From Gemmata obscuriglobus (GTDB lineage Bacteria > Planctomycetota > Planctomycetia > Gemmatales > Gemmataceae), in the NCBI RefSeq assembly GCF_008065095.1, contig NZ_CP042911.1, positions 2,820,001 through 2,852,000 on the forward strand: a stretch of 32,000 bases of DNA, in the 5' to 3' direction. Both the position numbers and the translations under genes were made by a program. The notes beneath the pieces were generated by a model. That model was not told the origin of the DNA. It saw nothing but the letters and a program-made list of their open reading frames with translations, and ran no database searches. Positions 1,022 through 32,000 of this stretch are shown here, in pieces (position 1 is the stretch's first letter; each line of letters opens with the position of its first letter).

Positions 1022-1027
1022 TATAAT
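1022..1027 (+). promoter_or_regulatory. candidate -10 hexamer upstream of response regulator 1
   Basis: Perfect TATAAT in a GC-rich context, about 30 nt upstream of ATG 1060. No convincing -35 element. Confidence 0.25.
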
Positions 1028-1059
1028 GCGCGTCAGCCCGCACCCGCGTGAGGCGCCGC

Positions 1060-11997: not shown

Positions 11998-13626
11998 ATG
12001 CGGCTCCGCTCGCTGCTACTCGCGGCCGCCTGTACCCTCGCGCCTGCGTTCGCTCGCGCGGGCGATTTGCCCCCGGCGTCGAAACCGATCGAGGAGGTCA
12101 TTGACCTGCTCGTCGGGGCCGCACTTACCGAGGCCGGGATCACTCCCGCTCCGCAAGCGGACGACGCCACCACCATCCGCCGGCTCACGCTCGACCTCGT
12201 CGGCCGCATTCCCACGACCGCCGAGGTCGACGCTTACATCGAGTCCACCGACGCCGACAAGCGGGCGAAGCTCGTGGACCGGCTCATGGCGTCTTCGGGG
12301 TTCGTGCGGCACCAGGCGGCCCAGTTCGAGGTCATGCTGAGCCCCGAAGGGGACCGCCGCGGGGGCGCCGCGTTCCGGGCGTACCTCACGAGCGCCCTCA
12401 ACGAGAACAAGCCCTGGAACCAGATCTTCCGTGATGTCATGTTGCCCGACGAAGCCGACCCGAAGCTGAAGGGCGCGGCCGAGTTCCTCCGCGGCCGGCT
12501 CGGCGACGCGGACAAGCTGACCGCGGACGTGAGCGTGGCGTTCTTCGGCGTGAACGTGAGCTGCGCGCAGTGCCACAACCACCCCAACGTCGAGGCGTGG
12601 ACCCAGGACCACTTCTACGGCATGAAGGCGTTCCTCGCCCGCACCTTCGATAACGGCGGGTTTCTGGCCGAACGCGGGTACGGGGTTGTCAAGTACAAGC
12701 CCACCAAGGGTCCCGAGCGCACCGCAAAGATGATGTTCCTGACGGGCGCCGCCGTCGACGACCCGACCGCCAAGGAGGCGACCGCCGCCGAGCAGAAGGT
12801 CGAGAAAGAGGCGCTCGACAAAGCCAAGACCGCCAAGACCGCGCCGCCCGCACCGAAATTCAGCGCGCGGGCCAAACTGGTCGAGGTGGCGCTGAAGGGT
12901 GAGAACGCGGACTTCTTCGCGCGGTCGATCAGCAACCGGCTGTGGCACCGGCTCCTCGGCACCGGGCTGGTGGCCCCGTTGGACCAGATGCACAGCGAGA
13001 ACGCGCCGAGTCACCCGGAACTGCTCGCGTGGCTGAGCCGCGACACCGCGGCCCACAACTACGACCTCAAGCGTCTGATCCGCGGCATCGTGATGAGCAA
13101 AACCTACTCGCGGAGCAGCAAGTACGAAGAGTCCGCGGGCGCACCGCCGTTCAAGACCTATGCCGTCGCCCGGCTCAAGCCGTTGACCCCGCTCCAACTC
13201 GCGACCTCGCTCAAAATCGCCGCCGCCGACCCGTCGAGCTTTGACAGGCTGAAGCCGGACGAACTCGAAAAGCGGCTGGAGCAGATCGAATCGTCCGCAC
13301 GCGGCTTCGCGGCCGTGCTCGCGCAGCCGACGGACAACTTCCAGATCGGCGTGGGCGAGGCGCTGCTGTTCAGCAACGGTGAGCGCGTGATGAAGGAGCT
13401 GCTCACCGACGGCGGCGGCTCGGCGCTCGGGCGCACGAAGGGGATGACGGAGCCGAAAGAAGCGGTCGCGTTCCTGGTGAAGGCCGCGTACGGCCGCGCG
13501 CCGACCGAGGCAGAAGAAGGGGCCTTGGTCGCATACGTCGAGAAGCGAAAGGACCGAGCCCACGAGGCCCACAAGCAGATTTTATGGGCGCTCGTAACGG
13601 CCCCCGAGTTCCGGTTCAGTTACTGA
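11998..13626 (+). CDS. DUF1549/DUF1553 domain protein (planctomycete PSCyt/PSD family), short form
   Basis: Sec signal MRLRSLLLAAACTLAPAFARA. Contains RRLTLDLVGRIPTTAEVDAYI (DUF1549), CAQCHNHP...DHFYGMKAFLART, and NRLWHRLLGTGLVAPLDQMHSENAPSHPELLAWL...LIRGIVMSKTYSRSS (DUF1553). Confidence 0.88.
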   Translation: MRLRSLLLAAACTLAPAFARAGDLPPASKPIEEVIDLLVGAALTEAGITPAPQADDATTIRRLTLDLVGRIPTTAEVDAYIESTDADKRAKLVDRLMASSGFVRHQAAQFEVMLSPEGDRRGGAAFRAYLTSALNENKPWNQIFRDVMLPDEADPKLKGAAEFLRGRLGDADKLTADVSVAFFGVNVSCAQCHNHPNVEAWTQDHFYGMKAFLARTFDNGGFLAERGYGVVKYKPTKGPERTAKMMFLTGAAVDDPTAKEATAAEQKVEKEALDKAKTAKTAPPAPKFSARAKLVEVALKGENADFFARSISNRLWHRLLGTGLVAPLDQMHSENAPSHPELLAWLSRDTAAHNYDLKRLIRGIVMSKTYSRSSKYEESAGAPPFKTYAVARLKPLTPLQLATSLKIAAADPSSFDRLKPDELEKRLEQIESSARGFAAVLAQPTDNFQIGVGEALLFSNGERVMKELLTDGGGSALGRTKGMTEPKEAVAFLVKAAYGRAPTEAEEGALVAYVEKRKDRAHEAHKQILWALVTAPEFRFSY

Positions 13627-13678
13627 CCGCCCGCACACACTCACCCGGCGGGCGCCCGCCCGCACAGGAGCACCTCGC

Positions 13679-14983
13679 ATGGCCCGGAACACCTTCTGCC
13701 GCTCGGCCGACCACGCCGTCGACCGCCGCGCGTTCATCGGCGGCGCATTGGCCGCCGGGGCTGCTCTTGCGGCGGACATGACTCAGCTCAACGCGCTGGC
13801 CGCCGCCGACGTGAATAAGGCGCTGAAGAAGACCCAGAAGCGGGTCATCCTCCTGTGGCTCGCGGGGGGCGCGTCGCAGCTCGAGACCTGGGACCCGAAG
13901 CCCGGCGCGAGCACCGGCGGGCCGTTCCGTTCCATCCAGACGGACGTGCCCGGGTTACGCATCTCGGAACTGATGCCGAAGATGGCCGCCCGGATGAAGA
14001 CCACGTGCGTGATCCGCGGGCTGAACACCAAGAACGGCGACCACGGGTCGGCCGCCGTGACGATGATGAAGGGGCGCCGCGACGAGGCCGCGGTTCGCTA
14101 CCCGGACCTCGGCGCCGTGGTGGCGCGCGAGATGGGCCGCGCGGACAGCAAGGTGCCGGATTACGTCACATTCTACACCCAGACCGAGGGCCGGGGGATG
14201 GCCCCGGGCACCGCCGGGTTCCTCGGCGCTCGTTACGCCCCGATGGAACTGACCACCAACAACTACCCCGAGTTCATCAAGAAGCTCGACGGCATCTCGG
14301 ACCTGGACCACGTCGAGCGCGGCGCCCTCCGTGACCTCCTTGGCAAACAGTTCGGCCAGGGGCGCAGCTCGGAGACGATGAGCAGCCAGAACGAGGCGTA
14401 CCAGCGGGTCCGCGGGATCATGGCCAGTGAGAAGCTGTTCGACGTGACGCAGGAGCCGCAAAAGGTGCGCGACCGGTACGGGCCGACGCAGTTCGCCGAG
14501 CAGACGCTCATCGCCCGGCGGCTGGTGGAGGCCGGCGTGCCATTTGTCCGGGTGGGGCGCGCGTGGTGGGACAGCCACGGGCAGAACTTCGAAACGCACC
14601 AGGAAATGGTGCCGGAACTCGACCACGTGATGGCCACGCTGCTCGACGACCTGGGCGAGCGCGGGCTGCTGGACGACGTGATGGTCGTCACCCTGGCGGA
14701 GTTCGGGCGGACGCCGGCGATCAACGCGAGCCTCGGGCGCGACCACTTCGCGAGCGCCTGGAGCTGTACGATCTCAGGGGCCGGGATCAAGCGCGGCGCG
14801 GTGTACGGCAAGACCGACCCGAAGGGGCAGACGGTGACGGCAGAAGAAGTGGACGCCGGCCGCCTGTTTGCCACGATCTACTCGGCTCTGGGCGTCGACC
14901 CTGAGAAGAATTACTACGTGGGCAGCCGCCCGGTGCCGCTAGTGAACCCCGGCGTCCACGCGATCGAAGAAGTGCTTCAGTGA
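13679..14983 (+). CDS. DUF1501 domain protein (sulfatase-like fold) with Tat signal
   Basis: Twin-arginine DRRAFIGGALAAGAALA, then LLWLAGGASQLETWDPKP and LAEFGRTP...GRDHF blocks. Confidence 0.9.
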   Translation: MARNTFCRSADHAVDRRAFIGGALAAGAALAADMTQLNALAAADVNKALKKTQKRVILLWLAGGASQLETWDPKPGASTGGPFRSIQTDVPGLRISELMPKMAARMKTTCVIRGLNTKNGDHGSAAVTMMKGRRDEAAVRYPDLGAVVAREMGRADSKVPDYVTFYTQTEGRGMAPGTAGFLGARYAPMELTTNNYPEFIKKLDGISDLDHVERGALRDLLGKQFGQGRSSETMSSQNEAYQRVRGIMASEKLFDVTQEPQKVRDRYGPTQFAEQTLIARRLVEAGVPFVRVGRAWWDSHGQNFETHQEMVPELDHVMATLLDDLGERGLLDDVMVVTLAEFGRTPAINASLGRDHFASAWSCTISGAGIKRGAVYGKTDPKGQTVTAEEVDAGRLFATIYSALGVDPEKNYYVGSRPVPLVNPGVHAIEEVLQ

Positions 14984-15046: not shown

Positions 15047-16051
15047 ATGAACGCTCTCAACCCGGACACGCTGAAGCAGGTGAAGGACCTCCCGCGACCG
15101 ACCATCACCTTCGCGGTCGCCCGCGCCGACGGGGCCGATGTCGCGTACCTGGGTGGGTCGGATTTCAAGGTCTATCGAGCCGATCTCGCGGCCCCAAAGT
15201 TCGAGCCCAAGGAGCTGTACGCGCACGAGAGCTACGTTACCGGTGTCGCGCTCGCGGGTGCCACACTCGTCAGCGGTGGCTACGACGGCCGGCTCACCTG
15301 GTTCGACACCGCCGCGGGCAAAATCGTTCGCACTCACGACGCTCACGCGAAGTGGGTCCGCAAGGTGGTTGCCTCGCCGGACGGGAAGCTGATCGCGAGC
15401 GTTGCCGACGACATGCTCTGTAAGGTGTGGGACGCGAAAACCGGTCAACTGGTCCACACACTGAAGGGGCACAAGGAGAAGACCCCGCACGACTTCGCCT
15501 CGATGCTCTACGCCGTCGCGTTCTCGAACGATTCGGCGCTGCTGGCGACGGGCGACAAGGTCGGACACGTGGTCGTGTGGGACGCGAAGACCGGGACGCG
15601 ACTCGGCTCGTGCGAGGCGCCGGTGATGTACACGTGGGACAAGGTGCAGCGGCTGCACTCGATCGGCGGCGTGCGGTCCCTTGCGTTTTCGCCCGACGGC
15701 CGATCGCTCGCGGTGGGCGGGATGGGTAAAGTTGGGAACATCGACCACCTCGAAGGCAAGGCCCGGGTGGAGGTGTTCGACTGGAAGGCCGGGAAGCAGA
15801 CCGCGGAGTTCCCGGGCGACAAGTTCGTGGGGCTCGTGAACCGGCTCGCGTGGGCGCCGGACGGCTCGTGGCTGCTCGGCGCCGGTGGCGCCGGTGAGGG
15901 GTTCTTGTGCTTCTTCGACGCGGCCGCCAAGAAGGTACTGCGGCAGGAGAAGTTGCCGATGCACGTCCACGACTTCGCCCTCTCGGCCGCAGGCGATCAG
16001 ATTACCAGTGTCGGGCACAACCGCATCACGGTTCACCGTTTGGGAGGGTGA
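15047..16051 (+). CDS. WD40 / beta-propeller repeat protein with no signal peptide
   Basis: Repeated units such as GGYDGRLTWFD, ADDMLCKVWDAKTG, GDKVGHVVVWDAKTG and SLAFSPDGRSLAVGG. Lies 63 nt after the DUF1501 gene on the same strand. Confidence 0.85.
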   Translation: MNALNPDTLKQVKDLPRPTITFAVARADGADVAYLGGSDFKVYRADLAAPKFEPKELYAHESYVTGVALAGATLVSGGYDGRLTWFDTAAGKIVRTHDAHAKWVRKVVASPDGKLIASVADDMLCKVWDAKTGQLVHTLKGHKEKTPHDFASMLYAVAFSNDSALLATGDKVGHVVVWDAKTGTRLGSCEAPVMYTWDKVQRLHSIGGVRSLAFSPDGRSLAVGGMGKVGNIDHLEGKARVEVFDWKAGKQTAEFPGDKFVGLVNRLAWAPDGSWLLGAGGAGEGFLCFFDAAAKKVLRQEKLPMHVHDFALSAAGDQITSVGHNRITVHRLGG

Positions 16052-17359: not shown

Positions 17360-18571
17360 TCAATCGACCTTTTTGGAGCCCGCCTCGCCGGGCGGTACTC
17401 GCCACCGACGCACGGTTTTGTCCCAGCTCGCGGAGAACACGAACCGTCCGTCCCGGGTGAAACACACGCCCTGAACCCCGTCCTTGTGACCCTCGAACCG
17501 CTTCAACTCCCGACCGGATGCGAGATCCCAGATGCGTACCGTTCTGTCGTAACTCGCGGACGCGACCCGCTTGCCGTCCGGGCTGAGCGCGACGTGGTAC
17601 ACGTGTTCCTTGTGCCCCTCGAGTCGCTTCAGTTCTCGCCCCGAAGCCACGTCCCAGACGCAAACGGTTTTGTCGCGCGCGCCCGAGACCGCTGCCTCCC
17701 CGTCGGCAGTGACCGCGATCGTGTTGACCGCGGTACCGTTGTGCTTGTCGAACCCGCCGACCACGTCGCCGGTTTGCGCGTCGTATACGGTGACGGCGCC
17801 CAGGCCGCTGCCGGCCAGCACGTGCGTCCCGTCCGGAGCTACCGCCACGCTTTCCACCGAAGCCTTTGCGGCCCCGTACTGCTTTACCTCTTGACACGCT
17901 ACCAGATCCCACGCGCGGCACGTTTTGTCGCTGCTCCCGGAGATCAGCGTTTTACCGTCGGCGGTCAGCGCCAGACCCCGGACAGCGGCCGCGTGGCCGT
18001 TGAGCTTGGCGAGCTCCTTGCCGGTCTTCAGGTCCCAGATGCGGATCGTACTGTCGCCGCCCGCGGTCACCGCTTTCGACCCGTCGGGAGTGACCACCGC
18101 GCTGCCGACCCACGCCGTGTGCCCTTCAAGCACCCGGAGCGGTTTCCCGGTTGATGCGTCCCAGAGGCGAACCGTGCGGTCGTTGCCCGCCGAGATGAGC
18201 GTCCGGCCGTCGGGCGTGACGGCCACCGCCGCTACTGCACTTGTGTGCCCTGATAATGCGAGTGTGAACAGGTCCGGGTTCTGTTTCTCGATTTCCTTGA
18301 GGCGTTCGGTCGGTACCCGATTTTGGTTGCCGGTGGTCACCGCTGTTACTGCGCCGTGCCACCTGGTGGCGCCGCGCCGGTCCGCGGGTTCCACCTTGGT
18401 ATCCGTTCCGGCCGATGCGTCGGCCATTTTGAACACGTCACCGCTTACCTCGACGGCTCTGACGCCTTGCGCGGGCGATGCTTCGGCCGCGGCAACCGCT
18501 GACGCCAACCTCACCAGAGTGAGCGCGAGCAGTGCGGCGGTCGCGCAGGCCGGGATGAGTGAACCGGCCAC
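17360..18571 (-). CDS. secreted WD40 repeat protein
   Basis: GTG 18569-18571 with GGAGG 6 nt upstream gives signal peptide (M)[30 protein letters not shown]. Followed by repeats of the type GHTSAV...SPDG...SGSxDxTxRxWD. The rest of the 638-aa ORF is antisense to pdxA. Confidence 0.82.
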
Positions 18572-18658
18572 AGCGGGCCTCCGGAAGGGAAGGCGGCGGG
18601 CCGTACAATGACGCGTGCGACGCCCGCGTTCGATCCGCACGCAAGAAACGGTAGCACG

Positions 18659-19621
18659 ATGTCCGCACGTCCGCGAATCGCAGTCACCATGGGCGATCCG
18701 GCCGGGGTCGGCCCGGAGCTGTGCCTCCGGCTCCTCCGGAGCGAAGAGGTTCGCGAGCTGTGCGAGCCCGTTGTGTACGGCGCCCTCGGCTTGTTGCGGC
18801 GCGTTGCGACTCACTTGAACTGGCCGGAACCCGATCCGGCCGCCGTTCGCGATCTCGCCACGGTTGACGGCGGGTGCGACGCGATCGTACCCGGGCGCGT
18901 GTCCGCGGCGTGCGGGGCCGCTGCCTACCGCTACTTTACCACCGCCATTGATGACGCCCTGGTCGGTCGGATCGACGCCATCGCGACCGCGCCGCTGCAC
19001 AAGGAGGCGTTGCACGCGGCGGGCTTCCCGTTCCCGGGTCATACTGAGATCCTCGCGACCCGCACGACCGCCGAGCGGTCGTGCATGATGCTCACCGCGG
19101 AAGCGATCACGTGCAGCCTCGTTACGGTCCACGTTGGCTACCGTGAGGTTCCCGGGCTCCTCACCGTCGAGCGCATCTGCGACACGATCGAACTGACCGC
19201 GGACGCGATGCGCCGCATCCGCGGGCGCGACCCGCGACTCTTGGTGTGCGGGCTGAACCCGCACGCCGGCGAGCACGGGCTGTTCGGCGACCGCGAGGAG
19301 GAGCGGCTCATCGTGCCCGCGATCGAGGCGTCACGCGCGAAGGGCATCGACGTGAGCGGCCCGCTCCCGCCCGACACCGCCTTCTTGCCGAAGCACCGTG
19401 CGCGGTGCGACGCTTACGTGTGCATGTACCACGACCAGGGGCTGATACCGCTGAAGGCGCTCGCGTTCGAGGATGCCGTCAACGTGACACTCGGGCTTCC
19501 GATCGTGCGCACCAGTGTCGATCACGGCACGGCGTTCGACATCGCGTGGCAGGGCGTCGCGGACGTTTCCAGTTTAATTCAGGCGGTGAAACTGGCCGTG
19601 AAGCTGTGCCGCGCGGTTTGA
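18659..19621 (+). CDS. pdxA: 4-hydroxythreonine-4-phosphate dehydrogenase
   Basis: [45 protein letters not shown] and [14 protein letters not shown] motifs. Confidence 0.9.
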
Positions 19622-20122: not shown

Positions 20123-21985
20123 ATGGCGACCGAAGCGGAACTCAAGGCGGCGGGCGAAAAGTACATCCCCAAGGACTACGACCCGGCGCTGTACAAGCTC
20201 CGGCACTCGCTGGCGCACGTGCTGGCGCAGGCAGTGGTCGAGAAGTTCCCGCAAGCCAAACCCACCATCGGGCCGCCCAACGAGTACGGCTTCTACTACG
20301 ACTTCGACCTCGACGTGAACCCGACCGAGGGCGAGCTGGAGTGGATCGCCAACCGGATGAAGCAGATCATCAAAGGCAAACACGCCTTCAAGGTGCGCGA
20401 GATCAGCGCCGACGAGGGGCGCGCACTGTTCAAGGACAACCCGTACAAGCTCGAACTGATCGACGGCCTCACCAAGGGACAGGACGAGTACGGCAACGCC
20501 TCCGCCGCCGCGCCGGTGCTCACCGTCTACCAGCAGGACACCTTCGTCGACCTGTGCCGCGGCCCGCACGTCGAAGCCACCAACGACCTGGACCCGAAGG
20601 GCTTCAAGATCCAGCAGGTGACCGGTTCGTACTGGCGCGGGGACAGCAAGAATAAGTCCCTCAAGCGGTTCCACGCGACCGCGTGGGCATCGGGCGACGA
20701 CCTCAAAGCCCACCTCGCGCGGCTCGAAGAGGCGGCCAAACGCGACCACCGCAAAGTGGGCCGCGAACTGGACCTGTTCGCCAACGAGCCGGTGTTCGGC
20801 TCGGGCTTCCCGATGCTGCTCCCGAAGGGCGCGACCATCCGCCGGCTGCTCGAAACCTTCATCACCGACTACGAGCGCCGGGCCGGATACCTGCACGTGT
20901 TCACCCCGGACATCGCGAAGAAGGAACTGTACAAGATCTCGGGCCACTGGGACCACTACAAGGACAGCATGTTCCCGCCGATGGACATGGGGGAGGGCGG
21001 GAACGACGACGAAGAGCTGTGCCTGCGGCCGATGTGCTGCCCGCACCACATCCAGGTGTACAAGAGCAAGGCCCGGAGCTACCGCGACCTGCCGATCCGG
21101 ATCGCGGAACTGGGCAACATGTACCGGTTCGAGCGGAGCGGGGTGGTCGGCGGCCTGTCACGAGTTCGGTGCATGACCCTCAACGATGCGCACCTGTTCG
21201 TGCGCCCGGACCAGGTGAAGCACGAGATCGCCGGCGTGCTTCAGTTGATGAAGAAGGCCTATGCGGACCTCGGCATCACCGAGTACCGGTTCCGGCTGTC
21301 GAAGAACGCGGACCCGGACGGCCCGCCGTCGGACAAGTACGTCGACAACCCGGCCATGTGGGAGAGCAGCACCAAGATGCTGCGCGAGGTGCTGCAGGAA
21401 AGCGGGATGCCGTTCTTCGAGGCGTGGAACGAGGCCGCGTTCTACGGCCCGAAGATCGACGTGCAGGTGAAGGACGTGATGGGGCGCGAGGAGACCCTCA
21501 GCACCATCCAGGCCGACCAGCACCTGCCGGCGAAGTTCGAGCTGGAGTACAAGGACAGCGACGACACCCCGAAGCGCCCGGTGATGATCCACCGCGGCGT
21601 GATCTCCACCATGGAGCGGATGATGTCGTACCTGATCGAGCTGTACGCGGGCGCGTTCCCGGTGTGGCTGGCGCCGGTGCAGGTGGCGATCGTGCCCATC
21701 GCGGACCGCCACTTCGCGTTCGCGCAGAAGCTCGGCGACGAACTCCTCGACAAGGATTACCGCGTGGACGTGGACCTGGGCGACAAGCGGATGCAGGCGA
21801 AGATTCGCGACGCTCAGCTCCAGAAGATCCCGTACATCCTGGTGATCGGCGACAAGGAAATGGAAGCGAACGCGGTCGCGGTGCGGCTGCGCGACGGCAC
21901 CGACCTCGGGGCCAAGCCGGCTGCGGAGTTCGTCGCCATGCTCGAAGCGGTGGCGAAGTCGCGCACGCTGAAGCTGCTGCCGTAG
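20123..21985 (+). CDS. thrS: threonine--tRNA ligase, without N-terminal TGS domain
   Basis: RHSLAHVLAQAV, GFYYDFDL, CRGPHV, YWRGDS, AAKRDHRKVGRELDLF, HWDHYKDSMF, RVRCMTLNDAHLF, AFYGPKID, MIHRGVISTMERM, WLAPVQV. Confidence 0.93.
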   Translation: MATEAELKAAGEKYIPKDYDPALYKLRHSLAHVLAQAVVEKFPQAKPTIGPPNEYGFYYDFDLDVNPTEGELEWIANRMKQIIKGKHAFKVREISADEGRALFKDNPYKLELIDGLTKGQDEYGNASAAAPVLTVYQQDTFVDLCRGPHVEATNDLDPKGFKIQQVTGSYWRGDSKNKSLKRFHATAWASGDDLKAHLARLEEAAKRDHRKVGRELDLFANEPVFGSGFPMLLPKGATIRRLLETFITDYERRAGYLHVFTPDIAKKELYKISGHWDHYKDSMFPPMDMGEGGNDDEELCLRPMCCPHHIQVYKSKARSYRDLPIRIAELGNMYRFERSGVVGGLSRVRCMTLNDAHLFVRPDQVKHEIAGVLQLMKKAYADLGITEYRFRLSKNADPDGPPSDKYVDNPAMWESSTKMLREVLQESGMPFFEAWNEAAFYGPKIDVQVKDVMGREETLSTIQADQHLPAKFELEYKDSDDTPKRPVMIHRGVISTMERMMSYLIELYAGAFPVWLAPVQVAIVPIADRHFAFAQKLGDELLDKDYRVDVDLGDKRMQAKIRDAQLQKIPYILVIGDKEMEANAVAVRLRDGTDLGAKPAAEFVAMLEAVAKSRTLKLLP

Positions 21986-23303: not shown

Positions 23304-24611
23304 TCAGCCGACGGACACGAAGTTGGTGTTGAGCCGGTCGATGCTCCCGCTGATCGGGAGCTTGACACCGGTTCGCCCGTTGTACGATCCGTAGATCGAG
23401 GACTCGCCGGCGATGATGTCGGCCAGTCCGTCCCCGTCGGCGTCGACGGCCGCCAGGGCGACGAACGCAACGGTCGGAGTCGTGCGGGTGTCGAGGAAGC
23501 TGAGCGACTCGGCGTTGGTTTTGCCGTCGAACACCTTGATGTGTCCGGCGGCGGGCGCGCCGGTGATGATGTCCGCGAACCCGTCCCCGTTCACGTCCCC
23601 CGCAGCCACCAGCGCCGGCCCGGTGTACCCGGAGTAAGCCAGGAAGCTGCGCACCTCGGCGTTGGTTTTCCCATCGAACACCTTTACGTGACCGTTGATA
23701 CCGGCCCCGGTGATGATGTCCGCGACTCCGTCCCCGGTCACGTCCGCCGCGGCCACGTCCACCGCGCCCGGGAAGCCCGGGTACGCCAGGAACGAGCGCA
23801 GTTCGGCACCCGTCGCCCCGTCGAACACCTTCACGTGCGCGTTAATATCGGCCCCGGTGATGATGTCCGCGACTCCATCACCGTTCACATCACCCGCGGC
23901 CACGCGCACCGCCCCGGGGTACCCGGGGTACGCCAGGAACGAGCGAAGCTCGGCCCCCGTCGCCCCGTCCAGCACCTTGACGTGCCCGTTCACCGACGCG
24001 CCGACGATCACATCCCGGATGCCGTCGCGGTTGATGTCCCCGAGGGCCACCGACAACGTTCCGTTGAACCCGGCGAACGGGACGAACGACGATCGGAACC
24101 CGGTCGGCAGGATCTCGCTCGCGTTCGCAGCGGAAATGTTCACCGTCGTCTGTTGGGGAGAGGCGAACTGCGAGGGGGGCTGGGCCGATGCGACCAGCGT
24201 TCCGTCGTCGTCGAAGATCGTAGCGGTGGCCGACACCGACGTGCCGAGCGTCGCCCCGCCGGTCGGGTTCGACAGGGTGAACGTCGCGGTTTCGGTCGGC
24301 TCCTTGCGCGTGTCGTCAGTAACCGGGACGGTAACGACCTTCGTCACCTCTCCGGGCGCGAACGTCACGGTGAACGGCCCGGCGGCGAAGTCGGTTCCAG
24401 AAGTCGCGGTGCCGCCGGTCGCGGTAAGCGTGGCCGACACTATGCCATCGGACCCGTCGGTGCGAATGACGGTCACGTTGACGGCGGCACCGGGAGTCTC
24501 AAACGCATTACCCGCGAACGAGATCTCCATCACCCCGGCCGCGGGCACCGTTCGGTCCTCGAACGGCTCGCAGTTGAGCCGGGCACGCAGAGGGGAAGGA
24601 AGAAAAGACAT
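23304..24611 (-). CDS. Calx-beta + FG-GAP/VCBS repeat protein with EDR-type N-terminal leader
   Basis: AGGAG upstream of ATG 24609-24611. N-terminus is MSFLPSPLRARLNCEPFEDRTVPAAG. Calx-beta: TATSGTDFAAGPFTVTFAPGEVTKVVTVPV...ATIFDDD. Five units of the type GDVNGDGVADIITGA..NGHVKVFDG.TGAELRSFLAYPG. Confidence 0.88.
   Translation of the reverse strand: MSFLPSPLRARLNCEPFEDRTVPAAGVMEISFAGNAFETPGAAVNVTVIRTDGSDGIVSATLTATGGTATSGTDFAAGPFTVTFAPGEVTKVVTVPVTDDTRKEPTETATFTLSNPTGGATLGTSVSATATIFDDDGTLVASAQPPSQFASPQQTTVNISAANASEILPTGFRSSFVPFAGFNGTLSVALGDINRDGIRDVIVGASVNGHVKVLDGATGAELRSFLAYPGYPGAVRVAAGDVNGDGVADIITGADINAHVKVFDGATGAELRSFLAYPGFPGAVDVAAADVTGDGVADIITGAGINGHVKVFDGKTNAEVRSFLAYSGYTGPALVAAGDVNGDGFADIITGAPAAGHIKVFDGKTNAESLSFLDTRTTPTVAFVALAAVDADGDGLADIIAGESSIYGSYNGRTGVKLPISGSIDRLNTNFVSVG
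23400..24060 (-). repeat. intragenic tandem repeats of about 147 bp (FG-GAP units)
   Basis: cggtgatgatgtccgcga... recurs at 23561, 23708 and 23855 (147-nt spacing). Diverged copies lie near 23408 and 24002. Confidence 0.85.
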
Positions 24612-24896
24612 TCGGACGATCTCCTGATATTTTTGCCCGCCGGAGCCACCATTTGCCACGCCGGTAAAGTCTAATTTTGTAACCGCTTGTGGCAACGTCT
24701 CGGACCGAAACCGTCGGTTCGTGCTCGAACGTCGCTGATGACGTGAACCGAGCCATCAGCGGCTATCGTCTACCAGAAGTTGAGCGCAGGGGTTGGCGGG
24801 CGCGATCCGGCCGACCGCAGTTCGGGAGCGGGTTTGCGTACTTTCGTTGCAAACCGCAGCGCGATTGAAGGGTTGGCGAGCAAGTGCATTGAGCGG

Positions 24897-25697
24897 TCAG
24901 ACGTGGTCGTCCGGACGGTTGTCCATGTCCGCGTCCAGGAAACTGCGCAACTCGGCTCCGGTCATCCCGTCGAAAAGCTTCCGGTGCGTCGATCCAATGG
25001 CGAAGGTGCTGATGTCGTTGCCGCCATCGAGTGCGGGTTCGTAACCCAGGCCGATGCTGCCGGTGAACCCCGCATACGCGAAGTAGCTCGTGACCTCTTT
25101 GCCGGTCCGGCCGTCGAACACCTTGACGTGCCCGTTAACGTCCGCGCCAGTTACGATGTCGGCAACACCGTCTCGGCTGACATCGACCGACAGGACGTTG
25201 ACCGACCCGACGTAGCCGGAGTACGCGAAGAACGAGCGAACTGCTTCCCCGGTTCGGCCGTCGAACACCCGGACGTGTCCGTTGGTGCCGGCCGCGGTCA
25301 CAATGTCGCTGGGGCCATTACCGTTGGTGGCGGTAACGCTGAGGGAGACCGAGCCGGTGTAGCCGGGGTACGCGATGAAGCTGCGCAGTTCCGCGCCGGT
25401 CCGGCCGTCGAACACTTTAACGTGCCCGTTAATGCCGGCCATGAAAACGTAATCCCAAACGCCGTCCCCGCTGACATCAGCGCTAGCGGCCACCGCACCT
25501 CCCCCGTCGTAGCCCGCAAAGACTTGGGCGAAGGAAGGGACCGAGGCGCGCGGGTAAAAGGCGAATGCGTCCTCGCCTTCAATGCGCACTTCCGTGGGCG
25601 GTTCGGCCGAGGTGACGGTTGATGACGGCGTCAGGCGGTCTTCGAGCGCCTCGGCTCTGAGTCGGGCACGCAGGTTCGGGGCGCGAAGAGCAGACAT
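24897..25697 (-). CDS. FG-GAP/VCBS repeat protein with EDR-type N-terminal leader (paralog of 23304-24611)
   Basis: ATG 25695-25697 gives MSALRAPNLRARLRAEALEDRLTPSS, followed by repeats INGHVKVFDGRTGAELRSFIAYPGYTG and similar. Confidence 0.85.
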   Translation of the reverse strand: MSALRAPNLRARLRAEALEDRLTPSSTVTSAEPPTEVRIEGEDAFAFYPRASVPSFAQVFAGYDGGGAVAASADVSGDGVWDYVFMAGINGHVKVFDGRTGAELRSFIAYPGYTGSVSLSVTATNGNGPSDIVTAAGTNGHVRVFDGRTGEAVRSFFAYSGYVGSVNVLSVDVSRDGVADIVTGADVNGHVKVFDGRTGKEVTSYFAYAGFTGSIGLGYEPALDGGNDISTFAIGSTHRKLFDGMTGAELRSFLDADMDNRPDDHV

Positions 25698-25856
25698 TTC
25701 AAATCCCAGCGCAATTTCACCATCAAGATCGGCCGAATCGGCTGACCCAGGGTTGGCATTGTAATTGGACGATAGCGGCACTCCGGAGGTGCGCCAATAC
25801 GGCTCTTCTTTGCGGGAATCGCGAATGTGCCAATGTTATCGTCTTGTGCGCTACCA

Positions 25857-26615
25857 TCACCCGGCCCGGAGCGCCGGGCCGGAGCCGGTCGTGTCGTGCG
25901 GGCCGGTGTGATACCGTTGCTCGCGCAAGGCGGTCGCGGCGTGCAGGTCGCGGTACATGCGGTCGAAAATGTAGGCGCCCAGTTCCAGGCCCTGATCGAC
26001 GAAGTAGCGGCGCGTGCCGTTCTGCCACCCGGGCTCCACCACTGCGAAGAACTCTTCGGCGTGGCGCTCGTCGATCTCCGCGTGCAACTTGTAGTGAACG
26101 AGTTGTTCCGCCGCAACCCACCCGTTATCGACCACCGCGCGGCCGATCAGGGCCGAAATGCCCGCGAACGCCTGCTCGATCACCCCCATACACGCCACGC
26201 CGATGTCGAGGTCGTCGAGCACACAGGCGGCGGTGAGCACGCTGTTGAACGCCCGCACCTCGGGCCAGATCATGAGGTCGTCGAGCCGCTCCGGGGCCGC
26301 CCCGATGGTGCGCAGGAACTGCTGGAACGTGGTGTGGTGGAACTGGCTCTCGTTGAACTCGCCGTGCTCCTCGACCAGGTTGTGGAGGATGTCGAGCCGC
26401 TGCTTCGGGTCCGGGATGCGGCCCACGAGCGCGGCCATCGGCCGCGGGAAAAACGTGACCGCGAAGAAGAACTGTTCCTGGGTCCGGCGGAACGCGTCCA
26501 GGGACATCGTTCCGCTCCGGAGGTCGCGGAAGTACGGGTTCGCCATGATCCCGGACCGCTCCAGCACCTCGGTCGCACGGGCCGTGACGCCCGGTGCGCG
26601 GCTGACTTCGCTCAT
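25857..26615 (-). CDS. heme-oxygenase-like diiron oxidase / iron-containing redox enzyme family (CADD/PqqC-like fold)
   Basis: All-helical sequence with carboxylate/His clusters HNLVEEHGEFNESQFHH, GVIEQAF and HYKLHAEIDERHAEEF. Start is 3 nt after the upstream stop. Confidence 0.7.
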   Translation of the reverse strand: MSEVSRAPGVTARATEVLERSGIMANPYFRDLRSGTMSLDAFRRTQEQFFFAVTFFPRPMAALVGRIPDPKQRLDILHNLVEEHGEFNESQFHHTTFQQFLRTIGAAPERLDDLMIWPEVRAFNSVLTAACVLDDLDIGVACMGVIEQAFAGISALIGRAVVDNGWVAAEQLVHYKLHAEIDERHAEEFFAVVEPGWQNGTRRYFVDQGLELGAYIFDRMYRDLHAATALREQRYHTGPHDTTGSGPALRAG

Positions 26616-26618
26616 GGG

Positions 26619-27554
26619 CTAAATCTCCGCGGTGTTGATCTGCCACCGGCACCCCGTTTCGAACCCCGACGCGAACACGGTCGCCGGGGCGACGACCGTT
26701 CCGGGCTCGTCCAGAACCGCGAGCACCGGGTCCGCTTCGTCTGCCGGGACGGCGGTGAACAGCGCCGGGAACCCGCGCCGCGCGGCCGCCCCGCACGCGG
26801 TTCGGAGTAGGGCCGCGAGCGAGCGGTGGTTTGCGTACCCGGTACAGGACAGGTGGGCCGCTATCATCTCGCCGTCGGTCGCGATTAAACGCTTCGCGAG
26901 CCGGGTGTCTTCGAGGCGCCCGACGGCGGACCCGTCCGGTGCCGCCAGCCACGTCGGGTCGGTTTGCGAACGCGCTTCGGGCACGCCGCCGGCGGTACCG
27001 GTGTGCCCCGACGAAAGCTCCGCGAAGAGCCCGCGGCCGCTCGCCTCGTCGGTTTCCCACGCCGCGCCCGGCGCCGTGTGTGCGGGGATGCGCAAGACCG
27101 TGACCCGGGCGACTTCACGGAACGGCGGAACGCCGAGCCGCCCCGTGTAGCGGTCGGGTGTGACCGGCGTACCGTCCATGACCACCCCGAACCCGCGCTC
27201 GGCTTTCCCCGCGCAGCATGCCGCGGCAGCTTCTGCCAGGCGCGGGAGGGCGCGGCCGCCCCGCGCCGCGGGCGCCAACTTCAGATCACCGACGTAAATC
27301 GCAGGGCGCTCTGCGCCGCCGGGGCCGCGAACCCGCGTCCGGGCGAGTCCGATCACGCCCAGCACCTCGCCCGCGCGCTCGGCGACGAAGCACGCCGCGT
27401 CCCCGATCGCGCGAAAGAAGCGCGGGTAATCGTCGCCGTGTGAGATGCGGAACGAGCGCCCCGCGCCCAGCGGGTACGTGAACTGCTCCTCGAACCGCGC
27501 GAGTGCCGCGGCGAGGTCGGCGCCCGGTGCGGCGGTCAGGTGATGAACGTTCAT
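26619..27554 (-). CDS. tandem GNAT-like (acyl-CoA N-acyltransferase fold) protein, function unknown
   Basis: ATG 27552-27554 overlaps the upstream stop (ATGA). FVAERAGEVLGVIGLA...AIYVGDLKLAPAARGG resembles a GNAT core and a second similar half follows. The family call is tentative. Confidence 0.5.
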   Translation of the reverse strand: MNVHHLTAAPGADLAAALARFEEQFTYPLGAGRSFRISHGDDYPRFFRAIGDAACFVAERAGEVLGVIGLARTRVRGPGGAERPAIYVGDLKLAPAARGGRALPRLAEAAAACCAGKAERGFGVVMDGTPVTPDRYTGRLGVPPFREVARVTVLRIPAHTAPGAAWETDEASGRGLFAELSSGHTGTAGGVPEARSQTDPTWLAAPDGSAVGRLEDTRLAKRLIATDGEMIAAHLSCTGYANHRSLAALLRTACGAAARRGFPALFTAVPADEADPVLAVLDEPGTVVAPATVFASGFETGCRWQINTAEI

Positions 27555-28636
27555 CGCTTCCGCCCGATGTGCAAGGCTCGGTAGAAGAAACTCCGGTCGC
27601 GCGCGTGCAACTCGGCGGTGTCGTCCCAGGCGAACATCGGCCCCGACGCCGGGATGTCGAGCGTCGAGTTCAATTGCCGGATCACGACCCAACCGCCGGG
27701 GCGCAGCGCGTTCGCGGCCACATCGAGGGTTGCGGTGGCTTCTTCGGGTGAGAGCCAGTCGAGAATGTTCGAGAGGTGGACCACGTCGAACGCGCCGGGG
27801 GATTCGCGGAGCGCGTCGGCCATCATCGCTTGGCGCCAGGTGATTTCGGGCGGGTATGCGGGCGCCGGAAGCCGCAGCCAGTCGGCAGGACCTGCGGCCG
27901 GGTACTGGTCGAGAAGCATCTGCCAGAGGAACGGGTTGTTCGCGGCCGGCAGCGTCGCGAGGGCGTGGCGGACGCGCCGTGCGAAGTGTCTCGAAAACGG
28001 TTCCACGGGGTTACGGGTCGCGCCCTCACCGAACAGCGCGACCAGGTTCGGCAGACTCAGGGTGGAGCCGAGCGCGGCATCGAGCGCCTGTCCGAGTGCC
28101 GTGTCGGGAGCCGTCCGCCGCGCCTGCTCGTCAGGGGCGGACAGCGCGAGTGCGGCCCGGAGCTCGTCACGGACGTTCAAGAGTGAGGCGTTCAGGGCCT
28201 GAAAGCACCGCTCGTAGCGGCCTTCGCGGTCCGGGCCGAAGGCCAGAACCCGCTCGGGCAGTCCGAGTGCATCCGCCGCGTACCCGAGCGCGGCCAACTC
28301 GGCGGTGAGGATCTCGCGCCGGGCGTCGAACCGCATCTCTCCGTGACCCAGAAGCGCCAGCCGATCGACAACGCTGTGCCGTTCCAGCAGACGCAATTTT
28401 AGCCGTGCAAGTGCGAGTTGCGCCGGGCTCGCGTCCACGAGATGCAGCCGCGCGACACCGGGCATGGTCGCGAGTACGGCCGCGGTGCAGCCGCCGGAAG
28501 CAACCATGCACACCCGCGCGCCGCCTCCGGCGCGGCTTACGACGTGCTGATCGATGCGCGGGTCTTCACGCACCTGAGCGAACGCGATCGGCAGGCGGGC
28601 CGCTTCCGCGACCCAGTTCGGGGGTGCGTGTGACAT
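27551..28636 (-). CDS. DUF3419 family protein (BtaA-like, putative SAM-dependent transferase)
   Basis: ATG 28634-28636. Contains FAQVREDPRID, MVASGGCTA, HLVDASPAQLALARLKLRLL, FDVVHLSNILDWLSPEE, LRPGGWVVIRQ and DRSFFY. Confidence 0.75.
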   Translation of the reverse strand: MSHAPPNWVAEAARLPIAFAQVREDPRIDQHVVSRAGGGARVCMVASGGCTAAVLATMPGVARLHLVDASPAQLALARLKLRLLERHSVVDRLALLGHGEMRFDARREILTAELAALGYAADALGLPERVLAFGPDREGRYERCFQALNASLLNVRDELRAALALSAPDEQARRTAPDTALGQALDAALGSTLSLPNLVALFGEGATRNPVEPFSRHFARRVRHALATLPAANNPFLWQMLLDQYPAAGPADWLRLPAPAYPPEITWRQAMMADALRESPGAFDVVHLSNILDWLSPEEATATLDVAANALRPGGWVVIRQLNSTLDIPASGPMFAWDDTAELHARDRSFFYRALHIGRKR

Positions 28637-28638
28637 GC

Positions 28639-28710
28639 TGCGAGCGTACCAAACCCGCCCCGGAAACGCACGCGGGTGCTTCGGGCACATCTCCCGGCCG
28701 TGCGAGCGTA
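28639..28710 (-). promoter_or_regulatory. pair of exact 10-bp direct repeats in the operon leader
   Basis: tgcgagcgta at 28639-28648 (2 nt upstream of the DUF3419 ATG) and at 28701-28710. A partial inverted copy ctcgcacgc lies near 28750. Confidence 0.3.
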
Positions 28711-28766
28711 TCTTAAGGCGAAAAGAATGGGAACGCGATCGGGGCGGATCTCGCACGCGGTTCGCG

Positions 28767-29231
28767 TTACATTCCCGGGCGGCCCTTCTCGGCGTACCGG
28801 TTCAGCACCTCGTACAGTTCGGCCGGCGGGAGCGGCTTCGTGAAGTGCAGGTCGAACCCGGCTTCCGCCATGCGTTCGAGTGAGCTGTAGTCGCCCAACG
28901 CCGTTAGAGCGATGAAGAGCTGTTCCTCGCTCCCCGGCAACTCGCGGAGCCGCCGGGCGAGTTCGCAGCCGTCAATCTCCGGCATCGAGATGTCGAGTAC
29001 ACACACTTGTGGTTTGAACTGCTCGACCTGAGCGAGTGCGGACGCGGCGTCGTGGGCCACCAGGGCCTTGCAGCCGACCATTTCGAGGATCGCCCCGAGC
29101 GAGTCGGCGGCGTCCACGTTGTCGTCCACACACAGCACGCGGAGGCCCGGCGGGGGCGGGAGAGCGGCACCCGCAGTCTTTTCGGTCAGCGCGGGCAGAA
29201 CGTCGCTCGGGGTTGAGGTCGGCGTGGTCAT
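28767..29231 (-). CDS. stand-alone CheY-like receiver protein
   Basis: LRVLCVDDNVDAADSL..., VCVLDISMPEIDG, ALTALG, HFTKP. No output domain. Confidence 0.88.
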   Translation of the reverse strand: MTTPTSTPSDVLPALTEKTAGAALPPPPGLRVLCVDDNVDAADSLGAILEMVGCKALVAHDAASALAQVEQFKPQVCVLDISMPEIDGCELARRLRELPGSEEQLFIALTALGDYSSLERMAEAGFDLHFTKPLPPAELYEVLNRYAEKGRPGM

Positions 29232-29337: not shown

Positions 29338-30810
29338 TCAGCGGATCAGGTCCGTGACGACGTGCTGCTCTTCCACCCCCGTGAGCCGTTGATCGAGCCC
29401 CTGGAACTTGTAGGTGAACTTCTTGTGATCGATGCCCATGAGGTGCAGAACGGTCGCGTTCAGGTCGTTCACGTGAGCCGGTTTGTCGGTCACGTTGTAA
29501 CTGTAGTCGTCGGTCTCGCCGTACACCTGCCCGCCTTTGATCCCGCCGCCCGCCAGCCACATGCAGAAGTTCCGCGGGTGGTGGTCCCGACCGTAGTTCG
29601 TCTTCGACAGGCCGCCCTGACTGTACACCGTCCGCCCGAACTCGCCGCCGCACACCACCAGCGTGCTGTCGAGCAGCCCTTTCTGCTTCAGGTCGGCCAG
29701 CAGTGCCGCGGTGGGCTGGTCGGTGTCTTTGCACTGCGAACGGATCTCGCCCGGCAGGTTCCCGTGCTGGTCCCATCCGCGGTGGAGGATCTGCACCGCG
29801 CGAACGCCGCGCTCCACGAGCCGCCGCGCCAGGATCGCGCTGGCGGCGAAGCTGCCGGGCTTCTTCACGTCGGGGCCGTACATTTCGAGCGTCTTTGCCG
29901 GTTCTTTTGATAAGTCCGTCAGGTCCGGGACGCTCGTTTGCATCCGGAACGCCATTTCGTATTGAGCCGTCCGCGTGAGCGTCTCGGGGTCGCCGTACTT
30001 CTCGGCCGTGCGTGCGTTGAGTGCGCCCAGCGCGTCCAGCATCGCGCGCCGGTTGCCCGCGCCCACGCCGTCCGGGTTCTGGACGTACAGGACCGGATCG
30101 CCGACGCTGCGGAGCGCGACGCCGCTGAACTTGCCCGGCAGGAACCCGCTGGCCCACATCCGCGAGAACAGCGCCTGCGCCGCGGCGCCGGAACTCCAAG
30201 AGGGCGTGAACACCACGAACGCCGGCAGGTCGTTGCTCTCGCTCCCCAGCCCGTAGGAGAGCCACGACCCCACGCTCGGCTTGCCCGGCGTTTCGCTCCC
30301 GGTCATCACGAAGGTGCAGGCGGGGTCGTGGTTGATCGCGTTCGTGTGAACGCTCTTCACGAGCGCGATCTCGTCCACCCACTTCGCGGTGTGCGGGAGC
30401 AGTTCGCTGACCCACATCCCGCACTGACCGTGTTGCGCGAACTTGAACATGGACGGCGCGACCGGGAGCCGGGACTGCCCGCTGGTCATGGTGGTGATAC
30501 GCTGGCCCTTGCGGACGCTCTCCGGCAGGTCCTTGTCGAACTGTTCGGCCAGCTTGGGCTTGTAGTCCCAGGTGTCAAGCTGGCTCGGGCCGCCGTTCAG
30601 GTGCAGGTAGATGACGGCTTTCGCTTTTGGCGTGTGGTGCGGGAACCCGGGCAGCGGCGGGTGGACGCGCGGCGCGGCTTCGGCGCCGCGGGCGCGGCCG
30701 GCGCCGAGCAGCGCCATCGCCAAGCCGCCGAGCCGGATGCCCGTGGAACCGAAGAACTGCCGGCGGGTGAGGTCGACTTGCTGTTCGTTGAGAAGGTGCA
30801 TGGCGGCCAT
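29338..30810 (-). CDS. DUF1501 domain protein with Tat signal
   Basis: [24 protein letters not shown]..., [26 protein letters not shown]...GRDHHP. ATG 30799-30801 is an alternative start. Confidence 0.88.
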
Positions 30811-30941
30811 TTGGTGGAGGGGATGCCGGAGCGCGGGCCTCTGGCCCGCTTCGCGATTCCGGTAGTATCGCTTTGCGGTATTGTCACACGCGACCACAAC
30901 TGCGAAGCAAAGCGGGCCAGAGGGCCGCGCTCCGGCGCCGA

Positions 30942-32000
30942 TCAGTTCCGACTCACGGCTTCATCCAGGTTCAGCACGAGGTTGGCGATCATCGTCCACG
31001 CCGCCACTTCCGCGTCGGCCGCGGCGCCCTTCGGCTTCGACTCGCCCGCGTGAACCACCTTCTTCGCGCCGACCGGGTTCGCCGCGAACAGTTCCCGCTG
31101 TCGCTCCAGGGCGGCGGCGACGAGCTTCACCTCTTCGGCGTCGGGGCGGCGGCTCAGCACCGTGCGGTACAGGAACGCGATCCGCTCCTCGACCTCCTTC
31201 CCGCCCTCGGTGAGGACCCGTTCGGCCAGCGCCCGTGCGGCCTCGAAGTGCTGCACGTCGTTCATCAGTTGCAGGGCCTGGAGCGGCGTGTTGGTGCGGT
31301 CGCGGCCGGCGCACAGTTGCTCGCGGTTGGTCGCGTCGAAGTTCGTCAGGAACGGCGCCGGGGCCGTGCGCTTGATGAACACGTAGAGGCTGCGCCGGTA
31401 CAGCGCCGCGCCGTGGTCCTGGAGGTAGTAGCGGGTGTTGCTGTCGGCGTAGCCCACCGGCTCCCAGATGTTGGGCGGCTGGTACACGTTCACCCCGCGC
31501 CCGCCCATCTCGTGGCTCATCAGCCCGCTCACGAACAGGGCGTTGTCGCGCAACTGCTCGGCGTCGAGCCGGAACCGCGGCCCCCGGCTGAGGAGCCGGT
31601 TCTCCGGGTCCTTCAGGCGCACCGCGGGCGGCTGGGCGGCGTCGCGCTTGAAGGCGTCCGAGGTGACGAGTAGTTTTACGAACTTCTTGGTGTCCCAGGA
31701 TGAGCGGTACTCGCCGGCCAGCCAGTCGAGCAGTTCGGGGTGGCTCGGCGGTTCGCCCTGGGAGCCGAAGTCGGAACTGGTCTTCACCAGCCCGACGCCG
31801 AAGAACTGCTGCCACAGGCGGTTCGCCGCGACGCGGGCCGCGAGCGGGTTCTCGGGGGACGTGATCCAGTTCGCGAGGTCGAGCCGCGTCGCGCGCTTCG
31901 ACGGGTCGGCGAGCTTGAGCGGCGGGAGCGCCGCCGGCACGCCGGGCTGCACCTTGTCGCCCGGCTTGTCATACTGCCCGCGGAGCATCACGAACGAGTC
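30942..32000 (-). CDS. DUF1553 (PSD-type) domain protein, 5' end beyond the window
   Basis: The frame stays open to the window edge. Contains [47 protein letters not shown] and LQALQLMND. Confidence 0.88.

Follow-up and report, generated by a model that had tools for sequence, protein, structure and literature searches.

To our knowledge, the only activity known for the DUF3419 family is that of BtaA, which transfers the 3-amino-3-carboxypropyl (acp) group of S-adenosylmethionine (SAM) onto diacylglycerol. N-myristoyltransferases (NMTs) are two-GNAT enzymes that use fatty acyl-CoA, with their own C-terminal carboxylate serving as the catalytic base. CADD, a heme-oxygenase-like dimetal oxidase (HDO) of Chlamydia, is a self-sacrificing p-aminobenzoate (pABA) synthase in which Tyr27 is sacrificial and Lys152 is the amine donor. 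Here, we describe three genes, P1, P2, and P3, which lie side by side in a stretch of 32,000 nt from Gemmata obscuriglobus (contig NZ_CP042911.1), referred to below as the window. Each of the three enzymes belongs to a known superfamily, and together they make up a compact operon of known enzyme types that is inherited as one unit and moves horizontally among bacteria of at least nine phyla. We found no description of this gene combination in the open-access and bioRxiv literature searched, in agreement with the preliminary description of this DNA, which knew of no pathway containing it. The cautious reading given in that description is supported, with corrections, and none of the outcomes that it had listed as contradicting this reading was observed. 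We tentatively read the trio as a co-translated, self-sufficient biosynthetic module that moves as a unit and would build an amphiphilic lipid or lipo-amino acid from universal precursors.

Anatomy, co-inheritance, and mobility of the trio

All three genes are on the minus strand. P1 (27551-28636), assigned from the open reading frame (ORF) map and Pfam, encodes a class I SAM-dependent enzyme of the DUF3419/BtaA family with 361 amino acids. P2 (26619-27554) encodes a 311-amino-acid tandem-GNAT acyltransferase with an NMT-like architecture in its predicted structure, and P3 (25857-26615) encodes a 252-amino-acid HDO, proximal to CADD and BesC, which is recognized by its PF14518 match and its metal ligands. 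The P1 stop and P2 start codons overlap in an ATGA at 27551-27554, which was read directly and represents translational coupling. A CCC spacer of 3 nt (26616-26618) separates the P2 stop codon TAG (26619-26621) from the P3 ATG (26613-26615), with a GGAG located 9 nt before this ATG. The packed ORFs, the overlap, and the 3-nt gap are located exactly where the preliminary description had placed them. We took the ATG at 28636 as the start of P1, rather than an alternative GTG whose ORF would extend to 28756, because 40 homologs begin at the ATG position. The product of P1 is 100% identical to a deposited G. obscuriglobus “DUF3419 family protein,” and that of P2 is 100% identical to G. obscuriglobus GobsT_24230. 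Upstream of P1, the ORF map leaves an intergenic region of 130 nt (28637-28766, minus strand), which presumably holds the promoter of the trio. No sigma-70 consensus was found in this region, and a pattern scan detected no sigma-70-like promoter or terminator inside the trio, both searches being of limited value for a planctomycete. No Rfam element is present in the window.

To assess how far this arrangement is conserved, we used a one-genome-per-species pattern scan, which produced 127 P2 relatives, and studied the best 80 loci. Synteny was counted across 87 fetched loci, and gene order and junctions were counted across 84 nonredundant loci with 69 measurable P1/P2 junctions. The complete trio occurs in 78 of the 87 loci, most exceptions being cut contigs, and their adjacency, which the preliminary description had proposed to examine in Planctomycetota, extends well beyond that phylum. 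The order P1-P2-P3 occurs in 43 of the 84 loci, followed by FAdes-P1-P2-P3 (16 loci) and P3-FAdes-P1-P2 (14 loci), where FAdes stands for a fatty acid (FA) desaturase-fold gene. P1-P2-P3-FAdes and P1-P3-P2 followed by an MmpL gene are rare, with a single instance each. Of the 69 junctions, 64 retain the 4-nt overlap of the P1 stop codon with the P2 start codon, and the gap from P2 to P3 measures 0 to 6 nt in most related loci with the P1-P2-P3 order, indicating that the close packing in Gemmata is not due to chance. The persistence of the linkage through rearrangement, in the three distinct orders P1-P2-P3, P3-FAdes-P1-P2, and P1-P3-P2-MmpL, argues for function rather than inherited synteny. 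In addition, the pairwise-identity matrices of P1, P2, and P3 correlate with each other (r of 0.74 to 0.84). Methyltransferase-, acetyltransferase-, and oxygenase-type enzymes are common as stand-alone modifiers of xenobiotics, and three unrelated tailoring or detoxifying enzymes could in principle be merely co-located here. However, the co-occurrence in 78 of 87 loci, the conserved coupling, the linkage through three rearrangements, and the correlated divergence leave this explanation with almost no probability, and synteny effectively refutes it.

The cassette is about 2.8 kb long and needs no partner genes. Its planctomycete hosts belong to Gemmataceae, Isosphaeraceae, Pirellulaceae (including Stieleria tagensis, L058), Tepidisphaeraceae, and Phycisphaeraceae. 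Other hosts are found among Verrucomicrobiota, the gamma-, beta-, and alphaproteobacteria, Myxococcota (Nannocystaceae), Latescibacterota, Vulcanimicrobiota, and Melainabacteria/Cyanobacteriota, and a relative is also present as a protein of an Armatimonadota metagenome-assembled genome (MAG). The Gemmata proteins are closer to the copies of Alcaligenaceae, Armatimonadota, and Opitutales than to those of Pirellulaceae and Tepidisphaeraceae, and this proximity to distant taxa points to horizontal transfer. Transposases, integrase, or toxin-antitoxin genes flank some copies. At one such site (L001/L002, 6908-8004), the P1 gene is broken into two ORFs (296 and 76 amino acids) between IS3-type and IS110 transposases, with an integrase nearby, and this looks like a decaying mobile copy. 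A plasmid of Mycobacterium riyadhense (L088, NZ_OY970457.1, 416109-418826) carries the genes in the order DUF3419-HDO-GNAT, with an MmpL transporter of the resistance-nodulation-division (RND) type directly downstream, and this trio adjoins three tyrosine recombinases, an IS110 transposase, and PE/PPE genes. In Gemmata itself, the GC content of the trio (0.67 to 0.74) is just slightly above that of its flanks, and the window thus shows no clear island signal.

Families and folds of the three enzymes

P1 matches PF11899 with 83.8 bits against a cut-off of 28.2 (E of 1.8e-23), and the match spans profile positions 12-384 of 385. This full-length match above the curated threshold bears out its earlier assignment to DUF3419. 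The C-terminal half of P1 also matches Methyltransf_12/25, which are generic class I methyltransferase profiles. The class I Rossmann motifs for SAM binding are present, namely, a glycine-rich motif I and D68 after beta-2, and the residues invariant in 37 to 41 P1 homologs comprise motif I ASGGC (A46-C50), D68, and an HLSNxLDW block (287-294). In the AlphaFold model (pLDDT 92.5), about 190 residues form a helical insert that interrupts the Rossmann core. Foldseek identified no whole-fold relative of P1 in the PDB (best E of 1e-3, TM-score of about 0.2), while the Rossmann half alone matches class I methyltransferases there, and a sequence-profile search against the PDB returned nothing significant. 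The DUF3419 fold is without a solved structure in the PDB. We also considered and rejected a role in antiphage defense, for which PADLOC gave only a marginal match to P1 (mad2, E of 2e-4) and none to P2 or P3.

P2, which has the least annotation among the three proteins, was initially described as a tandem-GNAT-like protein and compared with FeeM/NasY-type N-acyl amino acid synthases. Its match to PF00583 (residues 35-108) is below threshold, with an E of 0.017 and 15.8 bits against a cut-off of 20.7, and some P2 orthologs have precomputed matches to PF00583 or PF13527. The AlphaFold model, built from 36 homologs (pLDDT 92.7, pTM 0.90), has a two-GNAT fold, so that the tandem architecture holds in the predicted structure, whereas the PF00583 score does not reach family level. 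A Foldseek search of the PDB with this model produced 243 matches at an E of 1e-3 or below, and the top 50 are all two-GNAT NMTs (E of 9e-12 to 3e-10, TMq of 0.60 to 0.67). At the level of sequence, P2 has no match to PF01233 or PF02799 at an E of 1 or below, and the profile search against the PDB yielded nothing significant, with no NMT and with GNAT matches at an E of about 0.3 to 1. The comparison with FeeM/NasY-type synthases had to be abandoned, as PF13444 gives no match at an E of 1 or below and the structure is NMT-like instead.

GNATs bind the pyrophosphate of CoA after the fourth strand, and P2 carries a P-x-x-R-G-G segment at this place in its N-terminal GNAT, where K92, P95, R98, and G100 are invariant. 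At the other end of the protein, 77 of 78 distinct P2 orthologs terminate exactly in W-x-[IVLM]-x-[ST]-[AST]-E-[IVM], which reads W-x-I-N-T-A-E-I in Gemmata, and the matches of a representative search extend to the last residue; P3 termini vary freely. The fixed C terminus of P2 is consistent with, without proving, an NMT-like mechanism in which the terminal carboxylate would act as the base. At an E of 1e-30 or below, the P2 family comprises 314 clusters at 50% identity, and P2 appears to define a bacterial NMT-like family, as judged from the predicted fold, of a few hundred such clusters. No Rosetta-stone fusion of P2 was found, the long matches being a transposase fragment or free of domains.

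An NMT-like fold would also suit the modification of macromolecules, with P2 as a bacterial NMT analog acting on a protein N terminus and P1 as a methyl- or acp-transferase of protein or RNA, and other enzyme families are known to transfer acp to both RNA and protein. We nevertheless consider this very improbable. No target gene is conserved beside the cassette, the patchy and horizontally transferred distribution is atypical of modification of the translation machinery, and membrane oxygenase and MmpL partners do not fit. A protein N terminus is probably not the substrate of P2, since its operon partners are small-molecule enzymes.

P3 matches PF14518 with 66.5 bits against a cut-off of 28.9 (E of 3.4e-18), which confirms its proposed identity as a diiron oxidase of this family. 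Its metal site is complete, with three histidines and three carboxylates: E83, H93, E147, H178, D182, and H185 align with E81, H88, E142, H174, D178, and H181 of CADD. All six ligands are kept in at least 95% of 69 orthologs and are invariant in a further alignment (A8). Searched against the PDB, the P3 family profile retrieves CADD (1e-17), the pABA synthase 9pj4 (2e-11), and BesC (5e-10), while the single P3 sequence finds BesC at an E of only 0.04. Among the relatives suggested beforehand, CADD and BesC are therefore the nearest, but UndA, SznF, and AetD have no sequence relation to P3 at an E of 1 or below. As CADD is the best relative of P3 in both the PDB and NCBIfam, P3 could itself be a self-sacrificing pABA synthase, with its neighbors as folate-related accessories. 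The chance of this is slight: P3 does not qualify as an ortholog of CADD, as it scores 47.3 bits with the CADD subfamily model TIGR04305 against a cut-off of 200, CADD Lys152 aligns with a near-invariant Ile157 and Tyr27 aligns with Phe29, though Tyr28 is adjacent, and no folate genes are nearby.

A possible trigger of P3 can be considered in light of other HDOs. N-oxygenases such as SznF and RohS carry a seventh ligand, a Glu on auxiliary helix 2 (PMC13133933), and HDOs without this Glu are “substrate-triggered” by the carboxylate of the substrate, a rule summarized in the same paper. P3 has no conserved Glu in the 20 to 30 residues before E83, a position taken from the sequence alignment, where F56-x-R58-P59-M60 is conserved. 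Given this rule, together with CADD and BesC as the nearest relatives, P3 may act on a substrate with a free carboxylate.

Accessory genes, window neighbors, and proposed chemistry

In 34 of the 84 loci, for example, in Verrucomicrobium sp. BvORR106 (L083, 3859-4839), the cassette shows translational coupling to the gene of an FA_desaturase-fold oxygenase with four transmembrane segments (PF00487, 4.6e-45). The curated model nearest to this oxygenase is not a lipid desaturase but GntB (83 bits against a cut-off of 380), followed by CrtR, CrtW, and DesB. GntB is the arginine gamma-hydroxylase of guanitoxin synthesis and acts on free arginine. A census of 274 flanking ORFs revealed no recurring flank partner, as no Pfam family has more than six matches. 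Only 4 of 141 upstream flanking ORFs of related loci contain any methyltransferase domain, and none was found in the cassette or among the scanned main ORFs of the window. Lacking a BtaB-type methyltransferase, the cassette is not a btaAB locus for diacylglyceryl-trimethylhomoserine (DGTS), as had been stated initially, and none recurs in the flanks.

Several neighbors are confined to particular hosts. In two Melainabacteria/cyanobacterial MAGs, genes found downstream on the same strand encode a CDP-alcohol phosphatidyltransferase, a PlsC-type acyltransferase, and CdsA. PAP2_3 comes after the desaturase gene in a Gemmataceae MAG, and LPG_synthase_TM is located beside the cassette in L005. An AraC regulator and a major facilitator superfamily (MFS) transporter are divergently upstream in Verrucomicrobium sp. 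Vulcanimicrobiota loci have an M64 peptidase and two Zn-dependent alcohol dehydrogenases as neighbors. These genes are found downstream of the full cassettes L066 and L067 and also of a solitary P2 homolog without P1 or P3 (L065, 6001-6906). An EthD-domain protein lies just downstream of P3 on the same strand in L034 (7765-8487) and three to four other gammaproteobacterial loci. In about six loci, an upstream gene for a protein of about 240 amino acids, which has no annotation, recurs.

The window contains no FA-desaturase partner, AraC regulator, or MFS homolog. Directly upstream of P1 is a stand-alone response-regulator receiver protein (PF00072 Response_reg, 28767-29231, minus strand), which is not conserved beside the cassette in other genomes and is thus probably unrelated to the trio. 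Two paralogous FG-GAP/beta-propeller repeat proteins (23304-24695 and 24897-25781, both on the minus strand) are immediately downstream; they share the repeat ...GHVKVFDGxTGAELRSFLAYPGY..., and the pair is not kept beside the trio elsewhere. The remainder of the window includes pairs of the planctomycete type PSCyt2/PSD1 (DUF1549/DUF1553) plus DUF1501 at 11998-14983 (plus strand) and 29338-31991 (minus strand), two histidine kinases (1026-3191 and 7965-10091), WD40 proteins (15047-16051 and 17360-19276), and a class II aminoacyl-tRNA synthetase resembling threonyl-tRNA synthetase (20123-21985).

The regulatory surroundings bear on a possible LuxI-independent route to N-acyl-homoserine (lactone). 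Here, P2 would acylate the amine of SAM or homoserine, P1 would drive attack on the gamma-carbon of SAM with loss of methylthioadenosine (MTA), and P3, with or without the desaturase, would oxidize the acyl chain. Displacement of MTA from the gamma-carbon of SAM is common to BtaA-type and LuxI chemistry, LuxI and P2 are both acyltransferases of the GNAT fold, and the cassette is small and self-contained. We still judge this route to be quite improbable, because neither a LuxR-type receptor nor any other regulator, the response regulator of the window included, is a conserved neighbor of the cassette, and because the conservation of P3 equals that of P1 and P2, which would be unexpected for optional tailoring of the chain.

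A cassette that functions without partners in hosts of very different kinds must draw on universal inputs, namely, SAM, acyl-CoA, O2, and a common acceptor. We infer the chemical steps that would lead to an amphiphilic lipid or lipo-amino acid, as well as their order, the acceptor, and the product, with the step order following the commonest gene order. P1 would move the acp (homoserine-type) group of SAM onto a hydroxyl or another nucleophile and release MTA. The acceptor would be a common molecule, for which diacylglycerol is the only precedent, and the resulting homoserine-type unit would have a free amine and a free carboxylate. P2 would then transfer the acyl chain of a long-chain acyl-CoA to the newly installed alpha-amino group, with its C-terminal carboxylate as a possible base. 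P3 would bind the remaining free carboxylate and perform an O2-dependent oxidative decarboxylation or fragmentation, or a hydroxylation. In about 40% of the cassettes, the membrane FA-desaturase-fold oxygenase could add a further hydroxylation or desaturation as optional tailoring. The lipid character of this proposal derives from the BtaA family membership of P1, the NMT-like fold of P2, and, among partners and neighbors, the membrane oxygenase, MmpL, and the phospholipid genes. We are doubtful that the product is specifically a diacylglycerol-based membrane lipid. The full scenario of a novel SAM-derived lipid class seems unlikely as a whole: it would combine a BtaA-type homoserine head, N-acylation by the first bacterial NMT-type enzyme with the help of its own C-terminal carboxylate, and oxidative decarboxylation or fragmentation by a substrate-triggered diiron oxidase, and would give BtaA chemistry a third fate besides DGTS. 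In this scenario, horizontal transfer has carried the cassette to at least nine phyla with hosts from soil, freshwater, and the sea, and to a plasmid of Mycobacterium among them.

Several points weigh against a lipid or lipo-amino acid product. P1, P2, and P3 are all soluble and have no transmembrane segment or membrane anchor. The lipid-gene neighbors are sporadic, amounting to a handful of about 280 flanking ORFs with no statistical enrichment. The NMT likeness of P2 comes solely from its predicted structure, and the many invariant Arg, Asp, Glu, and His residues of its alignment suggest a polar substrate. P1 could be a plain methyltransferase. On a Streptomyces plasmid (L089, NZ_CP098484.1, 317780-320821), a different DUF3419 subfamily occurs in the order DoxX-“BtaA family”-DUF2071-methyltransferase, and this quite different context indicates that DUF3419 is functionally heterogeneous. 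No characterized enzyme activity is known in the P1, P2, or P3 subfamily. Finally, amino acids are the substrates of nearly all characterized HDOs (PMC13185094, PMC13133933), and this bias, together with the GntB likeness of the membrane partner, makes a water-soluble product possible.

The corresponding alternative is a small water-soluble or secreted metabolite derived from an amino acid, such as an N-acyl or N-hydroxy (hydroxamate-type) compound, an opine-like metallophore, or a modified arginine or lysine. P1 would then transfer a methyl or acp group to a free amino acid, P3 would serve as an N- or C-oxygenase, and P2 would supply the acyl cap. The solubility of the three core enzymes, the charged residues of P2, the known HDO substrates, and the closeness of the desaturase-fold partner to an arginine hydroxylase all favor it. 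So do BesC, which acts on a lysine derivative and is the nearest enzyme to P3 with a free substrate, and the MFS exporter and AraC regulator of the Verrucomicrobium loci. In contrast, the flanks contain no recurrent TonB receptor, nonribosomal peptide synthetase, ATP-grasp enzyme, or dedicated exporter, P2 resembles a long-chain acyl-CoA enzyme, and P3 appears to be without the conserved seventh Glu of N-oxygenase HDOs. The membrane oxygenase, MmpL, and the phospholipid-gene neighbors fit a lipid better. We regard a soluble metabolite as the main alternative, though a rather doubtful one.

If the trio does build a lipid or lipo-amino acid, it would represent a new pathway from three enzyme families that each have few characterized members. 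DUF3419 would gain a second function beyond BtaA. The NMT architecture would exist and work in bacteria, and the HDO superfamily would gain a lipid-type or carboxylate-triggered reaction. The wide environmental distribution suggests that an unrecognized lipid or biomarker may occur in soil and aquatic lipidomes. Cultivable and genetically tractable hosts include Gemmata obscuriglobus, Stieleria tagensis, Verrucomicrobium sp., and Mycobacterium riyadhense, and a cassette this small and self-contained makes the hypothesis directly testable by heterologous expression.

Comparison with known systems

The individual enzymes each resemble a described counterpart. P2 shares with eukaryotic NMTs (PF01233/PF02799) the predicted two-GNAT architecture (Foldseek E of about 1e-11, TMq of about 0.65), a motif-A-like P-x-x-R-G-G in the N-terminal GNAT, and a strictly fixed C-terminal end, which would be expected of a catalytic terminal carboxylate, but it is bacterial, about 100 residues shorter, and has no sequence-level similarity to them. 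CADD and the 4-chloro-allylglycine synthase BesC share with P3 the Pfam family and the six metal ligands and are its best sequence relatives of solved structure. P3 differs from CADD in falling under the subfamily cut-off and in having Ile157 in place of the amine-donor Lys. BesC is only distant kin, and the trio is without the halogenase and pyridoxal phosphate-dependent partners of the bes pathway.

Two groups of aminolipid and N-acyl amino acid pathways were considered as whole systems. The stieleriacine or N-acyl-dehydrotyrosine clusters combine NasY with a ThiF-like protein, a nitroreductase, and a methyltransferase (PMC12479983). They, too, provide a planctomycete route to N-acyl amino acids that combines an acyltransferase with methyltransferase-type and oxidoreductase genes, and Stieleria tagensis also holds the present cassette. 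We rejected a pathway of this type, as the enzyme families differ at every step (PMC12479983) and P2 is not of the NasY/FeeM type. The ornithine-lipid and acyloxyacyl aminolipid pathways (OlsBA, OlsF, and OlsHI, with the hydroxylases OlsC/D/E) also make an N-acylated amino-acid head that is then oxidatively tailored, and they are encoded in stand-alone operons that also occur in planctomycetes. In contrast, their enzyme families are different throughout, and the amino-acid unit of the trio would come from SAM. An ornithine-lipid or other known aminolipid pathway was rejected as well, since DUF3419, an NMT-like GNAT, and an HDO are all absent from a 2026 review of the field (PMC12971839).

The btaA-btaB operon for DGTS of Rhodobacter sphaeroides, Sinorhizobium, and Agrobacterium resembles the trio at the family level, with P1 and BtaA both belonging to PF11899. 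The trio is without the N-methyltransferase BtaB and has an NMT-like acyltransferase and a diiron oxidase instead. Both are nonetheless small, self-contained, and horizontally spread operons, and like btaA-btaB, the trio would need just SAM and common lipids.

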